Below are positions 15,470-15,795 of a stretch of 64,000 nucleotides of DNA, piece by piece. Source of the DNA: Escherichia coli O157:H7 (GTDB taxonomy: Bacteria; Pseudomonadota; Gammaproteobacteria; Enterobacterales; Enterobacteriaceae); assembly GCF_013167455.1 (NCBI RefSeq), contig NZ_CP038328.1, one strand, 5' to 3'. The position numbers and the translations under genes are program-made. Position 1 is the first letter of the stretch, and each line of letters starts with the position of its first letter. The notes beneath the pieces were generated by a model. That model did no database searches, had not been told where the DNA came from, and saw only the letters and a list, made by a program, of their open reading frames with translations.

Positions 15470-15795
15470 GCGTCAGGCAAGGCTGTTATTGCCGGATGCG
15501 GCGTGAACGCCTTATCCGACCTACACAGCACTGAACTCGTAGGCCTGATAAGACGCGCAAGCGTCGCATCAGGCAATGCTGTTATTGTCGGATGCGGCAT
15601 GAACGCCTTATCCGACCTACACAGCACCGAACTCGTAGGCCTGATAAGACGCGGCAGCGTCGCATCAGGCAATGCTGTTATTGTCGGATGCGGCGTGAGC
15701 GCCTTATCCGACCTACACACAGCACTGAACTCGTAGGCCTGATAAGACACAACAGCGTCGCATCAGGCGCTGCGGTGTATACCTGATGCGTATTT
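15470..15795. repeat. REP/BIME cluster: about three tandem ~100-bp units of REP palindromes
   Basis: Repeated GCCGGATGCGGCGTGAACGCCTTATCCGACCTACA...AGGCCTGATAAGACGC...GTCGCATCAGGC units visible in sequence; explains internally repetitive ORF-track artefacts 15451..15750 and 15503..15736. Confidence 0.85.

Follow-up and report, generated by a model that had tools for sequence, protein, structure and literature searches.

A BIME-2 array fills the spacer between pepA and holC

In a 64,000-nt stretch of DNA from Escherichia coli O157:H7 (contig NZ_CP038328.1 of assembly GCF_013167455.1; this whole stretch is called the window below), the spacer between the genes pepA and holC is filled by a tandem array of repetitive extragenic palindromic (REP) sequences. 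We are almost certain that this array is a bacterial interspersed mosaic element of the BIME-2 type with six REP palindromes, and that the open reading frames (ORFs) overlapping it are artefacts of the repeat. The best overall explanation, which we regard as very probable, is that of a three-unit BIME-2 in the 3′ region of pepA, with non-genic ORFs, with putative roles in RNA and as a gyrase site, and with a unit number that changes by recombination. The array is a typical, already known BIME-2 with strain-variable copy number, and as such adds a further case to a class that has been well described.

Tandem Repeats Finder calls just one array here, a strong one at 15473..15768, with 3.1 copies of a 96-bp period, 93% matches and a score of 504. 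Alignment of the repeat gives three in-register 96-nt copies starting at 15470, 15566 and 15662; when split at a common anchor, the units measure 96, 96 and 98 bp. An earlier reading of these letters made without database searches (the sequence-only reading) had proposed a large BIME cluster of REP palindromes here, with three tandem units of ~100 bp filling the spacer. The cluster is borne out by the repeat finder, by consensus and profile searches and by agreement with the published definition; three tandem units are indeed present, with a period of 96–98 bp and not of ~100 bp. The spacer is 353 bp long, from the pepA stop codon (15467) to the holC start (15821) as placed by the ORF list and by the RefSeq annotation of identical DNA, and the array fills it except for ~30 nt of conserved holC leader.

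A pattern search with REP consensus sequences, as the sequence-only reading had recommended, was made with the consensus sequences of Y and Z2. It located three Y units on the plus strand (at 15491, 15587 and 15683) and three Z2 units on the minus strand (at 15539, 15635 and 15733), with one to three mismatches each; the chance expectation in shuffled sequence was 0.00. A profile built from REP copies, run over the window with nhmmer at maximum sensitivity, confirmed all six units with E-values of 1e-9 to 1e-10.

The units alternate strictly, every Y on the plus strand and every Z2 on the minus strand. Y unit 1 (15491..15524) ends in CTAC, has one mismatch to the consensus and folds into a hairpin (−15.3 kcal/mol) whose stem has a single mismatch. 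Z2 unit 1 (15539..15574, minus strand) likewise has one mismatch to its consensus; its hairpin of −21.9 kcal/mol contains a 2×2 internal loop. Y unit 2 (15587..15620), Z2 unit 2 (15635..15670, minus strand) and Y unit 3 (15683..15716) are each supported by consensus match, fold and nhmmer. Z2 unit 3 (15733..15768, minus strand) is the most diverged, with three mismatches, the loop GTTGTG and a weaker inner stem (−15.9 kcal/mol). Each Y ends in the tetranucleotide foot CTAC and each Z2 reads, on the plus strand, GTAG followed by the stem, so that the feet face one another across a tail-to-tail linker of 14–16 nt (ACAGCACTGAACTC); the head-to-head linkers are ~12 nt long (AATGCTGTTATT).

At its left edge (15468..15490), as the in-register alignment of the units makes visible, the array begins with a partial Z2 tail, GCGTCAGGCA, and a linker of the head-to-head type, AGGCTGTTATT; this edge is the extra 0.1 copy in the Tandem Repeats Finder call. 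At the right, a terminal hairpin, GCATCAGG...CCTGATGC (15759..15790; −17.1 kcal/mol, z = −2.35), pairs the arm of the last Z2 with a truncated head of Z type, CCTGATGCG; this hairpin is kept in every BIME allele including that of K-12 and is followed by no T-run.

A BIME-2 is defined by Y and Z2 units in inverse orientation, with a short linker between them and s, l or r motifs at the flanks, and occurs as several tandem copies, in numbers that differ from strain to strain, while a BIME-1 is a single Y–Z1 pair with a long linker that binds IHF (PMC3333891; PMC1187871). The O157 array is extragenic and has Y and Z2 units in strict alternation, GTAG feet, stem mismatches and tandem copies that vary among strains. 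No match to the IHF consensus WATCAANNNNTTR was found in the spacer, with a strict pattern that also missed the putative BIME-1 sites of the window. Set beside the BIME-2 elements described by Gilson, Bachellier and Hofnung, the array agrees in its units, their orientation, the feet, the stem mismatches, the tandem arrangement, the extragenic position and the variable number; with six palindromic units, in a range of 2–12, it is mid-sized, and we see no essential difference. The element was in fact already catalogued, since its K-12 orthologue is listed as a BIME-2 of 83 bp ('<holC-<pepA') in Table DS3 of a study that mapped gyrase cleavage genome-wide (PMC6379681). The K-12 record NC_000913.3 has no repeat_region feature at the locus.

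One feature sets these Y units apart from those elsewhere in the window. Throughout Escherichia, the Y units of the pepA–holC spacer have a locus-specific outer stem, GTCGG...CCGAC, with a U-A pair, whereas the Y units elsewhere in the window (at 29528, 39476, 42782, 49023 and 58510) have GCCGG...CCGGC, with a C-G pair. Mismatch intermediates for this pair are seen in unit 1 of O157 and in units 1 and 2 of E. albertii.

Predicted hairpin folding and pairing of the stems

The RNA of the whole spacer is predicted to fold with −164 kcal/mol (z = −8.1 against shuffled sequences), and the six single-unit hairpins have energies from −15 to −22 kcal/mol. The stem defects in these folds are a single mismatch in Y and a 2×2 internal loop in Z2. 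In a covariation test of the Y hairpin, 96% of the stem cells were paired and one compensated pair, C-G to U-A, was found. The substitutions that separate O157 from E. albertii appear to lie mostly in hairpin loops and linkers.

Unit number and occupancy of the spacer

Comparison of unit number across strains, the other check recommended by the sequence-only reading, gave a range of one to four units across Escherichia, with one in K-12 and three in O157. Four alleles were read directly: the three-unit O157 allele (353-bp spacer), the two-unit PS00260.4 allele (257 bp), the one-unit K-12 allele (159 bp) and the LD67-1 allele, with no REP (133 bp). The two-unit allele is a chimera of O157 units 1 and 2, with the junction inside the Y unit, and the one-unit allele a chimera of units 1 and 3, with the junction inside the Z2 unit. 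Junctions of this kind are what a deletion through recombination of, or slippage between, direct repeats would be expected to leave.

Among complete E. coli genomes, the BIME allele was covered over at least 80% of its length in 4006 of 5425, while the 133-bp non-REP allele was present in 1405 of 5426 (~26%). The proportion of alleles with three, two and one units was ~32:11:5 in a sample of the BIME-allele rows rather than in all 5,426 genomes, and all five one-unit rows were K-12 laboratory derivatives. In other Escherichia, three units are found in E. albertii, two in Escherichia sp. E1V33 and in E. whittamii, one in Escherichia sp. MOD1-EC7003 and four in SCPM-O-B-8794 (a GTDB representative); to judge by these outgroups, the BIME-2 is old at the pepA–holC site. 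Units are 93.7% identical within an array and 90.4% between species, and this slightly higher within-array identity is consistent with ongoing turnover.

The 133-bp allele carries the palindrome CCCTCTCCC...GGGAGAGGG, a dispersed repeat found at a median of six places per genome. The exchange between BIME and non-BIME alleles (15468-15790 in the window; comparison locus L004:469-601) begins at the pepA stop codon and ends ~30 nt short of the holC start. The non-REP allele looks derived, because E. albertii and other Escherichia carry the BIME. As an alternative occupant of the same spacer, the CCCTCTCCC...GGGAGAGGG repeat is, like the array, a G+C-rich dispersed intergenic palindrome; it differs from REP in its unrelated sequence, the lack of GTAG/CTAC feet and a much lower copy number, and is absent from the window. 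It may belong to the family known as 'boxC', for which PMC2267715 gives copy numbers and no sequence.

The spacers of 77 Enterobacteriaceae species (L008-L087) hold different repeats: 42 have REP-like sequences with GTAG/CTAC feet, 12 have repeats of the CCCTCTCCC type, 6 have ERIC-like sequence and the remaining 17 have none of these. This diversity suggests that the spacer may be a permissive landing site for repeats. In the Pseudocitrobacter spacer (L017), repeats of the CCCTCTCCC type stand in tandem. The sole non-repeat part of the O157 spacer is the holC leader, TATTTAAATCCACCACAAGAAGCCCCATAT (15791..15820, plus strand), delimited by comparison of these species spacers and of the alleles. 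The leader (~30 nt) is 85–100% identical in most of the 77 spacers and is common to BIME and non-BIME alleles; the sequence upstream of it is freely replaced between genera.

Possible roles in pepA–holC expression and as a gyrase site

The 3′ untranslated region of pepA enters the repeat array. From what is known of other BIME-2 elements and of the K-12 orthologue, we infer the following mechanism. On RNA started at the pepA promoter, every REP would form a stable hairpin. Together the hairpins would stop 3′-to-5′ exonucleases and so protect the pepA message, and they would reduce read-through into holC–valS as an attenuator that is leaky and in part dependent on Rho. The array would in this way set the ratio of pepA to holC–valS expression. 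On DNA, the Y units may serve as a site of transcription-independent binding and cleavage by gyrase. Unit number would change when the 96-bp direct repeats recombine or slip against one another, perhaps with the help of a REP-associated transposase, to give one to four units. A function at the RNA level, as stabiliser or attenuator, seems to us slightly better than an even bet at this locus.

The best experimental model is REP325, the source of naRNA4, which resembles the array in its Y plus Z2 unit and in its place between two co-oriented genes; the layout pepA–[BIME-2]–holC–valS is the same as that of yjdM–REP325–yjdN. REP325 is a 12-hairpin Y/Z2 BIME-2 that separates the tandem pair yjdM and yjdN; it stabilises the upstream yjdM mRNA and attenuates downstream yjdN ~8–10-fold, in part through Rho, leaving a ladder of hairpin-ended RNAs (bioRxiv 10.64898/2026.03.23.713779). 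The O157 array differs from it in having 6 hairpins to 12 and in the reversed order of Y and Z2 in the mRNA (the Rfam matches described below are antisense to the flanking genes). Genome-wide, tandem gene pairs separated by REP have a higher ratio of upstream to downstream expression, and a terminator table in the supplement of the same study groups pepA:holC:valS in K-12 at the terminator after valS (bioRxiv 10.64898/2026.03.23.713779). This grouping hints at read-through across the K-12 element.

Classical intercistronic REPs offer another comparison. Newbury, Higgins and co-workers (reference 11 of PMC2267715) reportedly showed in 1987–88 that the intercistronic REPs of malE–malF and hisJ–hisQ protect the upstream mRNA. 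These REPs are like the array in placing hairpins 3′ of an upstream gene in or near a polycistronic unit, with expected protection from 3′ exonucleases; they differ in consisting of one or two palindromic units and in belonging to proven operons, while co-transcription of pepA with holC–valS is only hinted at. A REP that lies no more than 15 nt from the stop codon reportedly reduces translation (Liang, Rudd and Deutscher, 2015); with its first complete hairpin ~25 nt after the pepA stop codon, the array would fall outside this rule.

Gyrase cleavage in vivo is on record for the one-unit K-12 orthologue, which makes the O157 array a putative site by analogy. The K-12 holC–pepA BIME-2 has two cleavage sites with ciprofloxacin (Cfx), one with rifampicin plus ciprofloxacin (RifCfx), none in the 'Micro' condition and two with oxolinic acid (Oxo) (PMC6379681, Table DS3). 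BIME-2 elements as a class are enriched for gyrase sites, behave as sites independent of transcription and are cut mainly in their Y units.

Several observations weigh against these roles. The support from hairpin covariation is one pair and is statistically weak, with 69 of 500 shuffles scoring as high. The effects of REPs are context-dependent, and mRNAs ending in REPs do not generally have longer half-lives (bioRxiv 10.64898/2026.03.23.713779). No promoter- or terminator-like site is seen in the spacer. A stabiliser or attenuator role in O157 is drawn by analogy. The array and its copy number are dispensable, since ~26% of E. coli have no BIME here and K-12 has one unit; any function of the array is therefore modulatory and dispensable.

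A further step would be to see in the unit number, and in the switch between BIME and non-BIME alleles, a dial that tunes the ratio of pepA to holC–valS expression, or the local activity of gyrase, from strain to strain. We think this rather improbable. The spacer has at least four states in E. coli, namely the non-REP repeat (in ~26% of genomes) and one, two or three units, and sister Escherichia species reach four. If the idea were true, the number of hairpins would, as at REP325, set both the attenuation and the protection of pepA mRNA and would produce heritable differences among strains, acting on an essential downstream pair, holC (the χ subunit of the replisome) and valS (valyl-tRNA synthetase). 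This natural allelic series (0–3 units in E. coli, up to four in related Escherichia) beside essential genes would allow a test of tuning by hairpin number and of the strength of the gyrase site.

Alternative readings of the array

A serious partial alternative is that the array arose as a neutral or selfish repeat through a REP-associated transposase. That it is mainly a repeat of this kind we consider possible, at clearly less than even odds. The unit number varies freely from one to four, another repeat occupies the site in ~26% of E. coli, the varied repeat families in the 77 Enterobacteriaceae spacers suggest a permissive landing site, and in vitro BIMEs are substrates for cleavage and recombination by TnpA-REP (PMC3333891). 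Yet a BIME-2 has been kept here across several Escherichia species, substitutions appear to spare the hairpin stems (96% paired), gyrase does cleave the K-12 copy, and the expression ratios of tandem genes are shifted genome-wide where REPs lie between them. Moreover, neutral or selfish behaviour accounts for the origin of the array and is compatible with the effects on RNA and DNA proposed above.

The G+C-rich run of hairpins directly after the pepA stop codon could also be taken for an intrinsic (Rho-independent) terminator of pepA. We judge this very improbable: the spacer has no hairpin with a T-run and a terminator scan found no site, the published table groups pepA, holC and valS at a terminator downstream of valS, and REP-associated attenuation is reported to be leaky and partly Rho-dependent (bioRxiv 10.64898/2026.03.23.713779).

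The array also matches an Rfam family of RNAs. Two full-length matches to naRNA4 (RF02564), each covering one Y and one Z2, lie on the minus strand at 15542-15617 (82.2 bits) and 15638-15713 (77.9 bits), above the gathering score of 59.5, and three more matches fall on other REP sites of the window. They could mean that the locus makes RNAs of ~77 nt with two hairpins that bind HU and condense the nucleoid, as proposed for REP325. In that original model naRNA4 is one Y-plus-Z2 unit of REP325 (PMC4550694). The matches run antisense to pepA and holC, with no promoter-like site on either strand, and the Rfam model, which amounts to one Y plus one Z2 unit, picks up Y/Z2 REP pairs as such, five of them in the window. 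A later study, which shares an author (Adhya) with the original one, found that deletion or overexpression of REP325/naRNA4 leaves nucleoid volume unchanged and that REP–REP contacts do not form (bioRxiv 10.64898/2026.03.23.713779). The matches only restate the family assignment, because naRNA4 is the Y plus Z2 unit of REP325; they should be read as 'BIME-2 unit' and not as evidence of a small RNA (sRNA) gene. A nucleoid-condensing RNA locus is, in our estimate, very improbable.

Open reading frames over the array

Two ORFs overlap the array, and the sequence-only reading had taken them for artefacts of the repeat on account of their internally repeated peptide sequence. Both exist and both show the repetition: an ORF of 99 aa on the minus strand (15451..15750), with an internal period of 32 aa, and one of 77 aa on the plus strand (15503..15736), with a visible 32-aa internal repeat and a GTG start in the loop of Y unit 1. 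The ORF list has two more over the array, of 64 aa (15592..15786, plus strand) and 46 aa (15678..15818, minus strand). Two properties of the unit keep the frames open from one copy to the next: its length of 96 bp is divisible by 3 (32 codons), and, being rich in G+C, it contains few stop triplets.

For the 99-aa and 77-aa ORFs, scans of Pfam and NCBIfam yielded no family, with nothing beyond sub-threshold noise, and their exact sequences were not found in a collection of 15 billion proteins. A homologue search of 5.8 billion clusters gave 35 sporadic relatives called 'hypothetical protein', in clusters of 1–53 members, in contrast to the more than 4,000 complete E. coli genomes that carry the DNA of the array. 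RefSeq annotates no coding sequence (CDS) in the spacer in O157 PV15-279, Sakai or K-12. In K-12 and in the allele with two units, the length of the ORFs follows the number of units. In arrays with a period of 98 bp (SCPM-O-B-8794 and E. whittamii), the frame shifts with each unit and the ORFs fragment to 30–66 aa. Between O157 and E. albertii, substitutions at codon positions 1, 2 and 3 number 11, 4 and 8 in the minus-strand ORF and 3, 9 and 7 in the plus-strand ORF, with no third-position excess in either.

Evidence of translation, named by the sequence-only reading as what would overturn its view, was sought in the ribosome profiling of strain Sakai. None of its 465 supported intergenic ORFs lies in the spacer by coordinates, gene names or peptides, a weak negative that covers the searchable text of the supplements. 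Reads that map to repeats are often discarded in ribosome profiling, which weakens its negatives.

We thus find no conserved frame, no coding-like substitution pattern and no family support for the overlapping ORFs; the artefact view holds, and they should not be annotated as genes. That the 99-aa or the 77-aa ORF is a real lineage-specific gene for a small protein can practically be dismissed: the ORFs are long for a 353-bp spacer and similar 'hypothetical proteins' are called in a few annotations, but these relatives are sporadic, there is neither a family match nor an exact copy among known proteins, frames and lengths shift with unit number and break at the 98-bp period, third-position bias is lacking, the plus-strand start sits in a hairpin loop, and neither RefSeq nor the searchable Sakai profiling text has such a gene.

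Other REP sites in the window

Six smaller REP clusters at other intergenic sites had also been claimed, and the profile search together with the O157 annotation returned exactly six canonical ones, all intergenic and with one or two units each: 11367-11402 (yjgR/lptG), 29474-29561 (ridA/mgtA), 39476-39559 (nrdD/nrdG), 42732-42815 (yjgA/mpl), 48972-49056 (ytfQ/ytfR) and 58510-58607 (msrA/paeA). The pairs at nrdD–nrdG and ytfQ–ytfR stand between co-oriented adjacent genes. The latter follows the gene for a substrate-binding protein of an ABC transporter, the layout of the classical malE–malF REP, and is listed in K-12 as REP336, 'Tandem' (supplement of bioRxiv 10.64898/2026.03.23.713779).

The same supplement gives the K-12 labels REP340 and REP341 to hairpins at the junctions yjgM/rraB and valS/yjgN, respectively (bioRxiv 10.64898/2026.03.23.713779). 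In the window these hairpins, at 21070-21098 (REP340) and 19138-19168 (REP341), had no match to the Y/Z REP profile, and they look like bidirectional hairpins of the terminator type. Counts of REPs thus depend on the catalogue used.

Flanking genes and source of the window

The upstream gene, pepA (leucyl aminopeptidase; 13956..15467, plus strand), is a 503-aa ORF identified through the RefSeq annotation of identical O157:H7 DNA. Downstream, holC (the χ subunit of DNA polymerase III; 15821..16264, plus strand; ORF list and RefSeq) is directly followed by valS. Scans of the spacer gave no σ70 promoter-like site on either strand and no intrinsic-terminator-like site, with no hairpin followed by a T-run. 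A strong Rfam match to 'Yersinia sRNA 276' (177 bits; 14514-14708, minus strand) lies antisense and wholly inside the pepA CDS; it probably reflects conservation of pepA itself and not an sRNA gene.

Bases 15300-16000 of the window are 100% identical to several O157:H7 chromosomes. Against strain Sakai, positions 1-6397 align at 100% and 6396-40607 at 99.94% identity. A copy of IS629/IS1203 at 5084-6395 adjoins the leuX-associated integrase; it has the orientation seen in Sakai and is inverted relative to PV15-279, and a neighbouring segment of ~164 bp that Sakai and PV15-279 share is missing from the window.

Two further tandem repeats were noted. The yjgL CDS, for a hexapeptide-repeat protein, contains an 18-bp repeat in 9.9 copies (23773-23950); PV15-279 aligns with the window over this repeat without gaps, while yjgL of Sakai is one unit longer (1773 bp vs 1755 bp in PV15-279), which leaves 18 gap columns in the Sakai alignment. 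An 18-bp variable-number tandem repeat of this region is reportedly used in typing of O157 by multiple-locus variable-number tandem-repeat analysis. At or just past the 3′ end of ytfK, the 17-bp sequence CTTTTTACTGCATAGCA is repeated in 3.2 copies (60167-60221).

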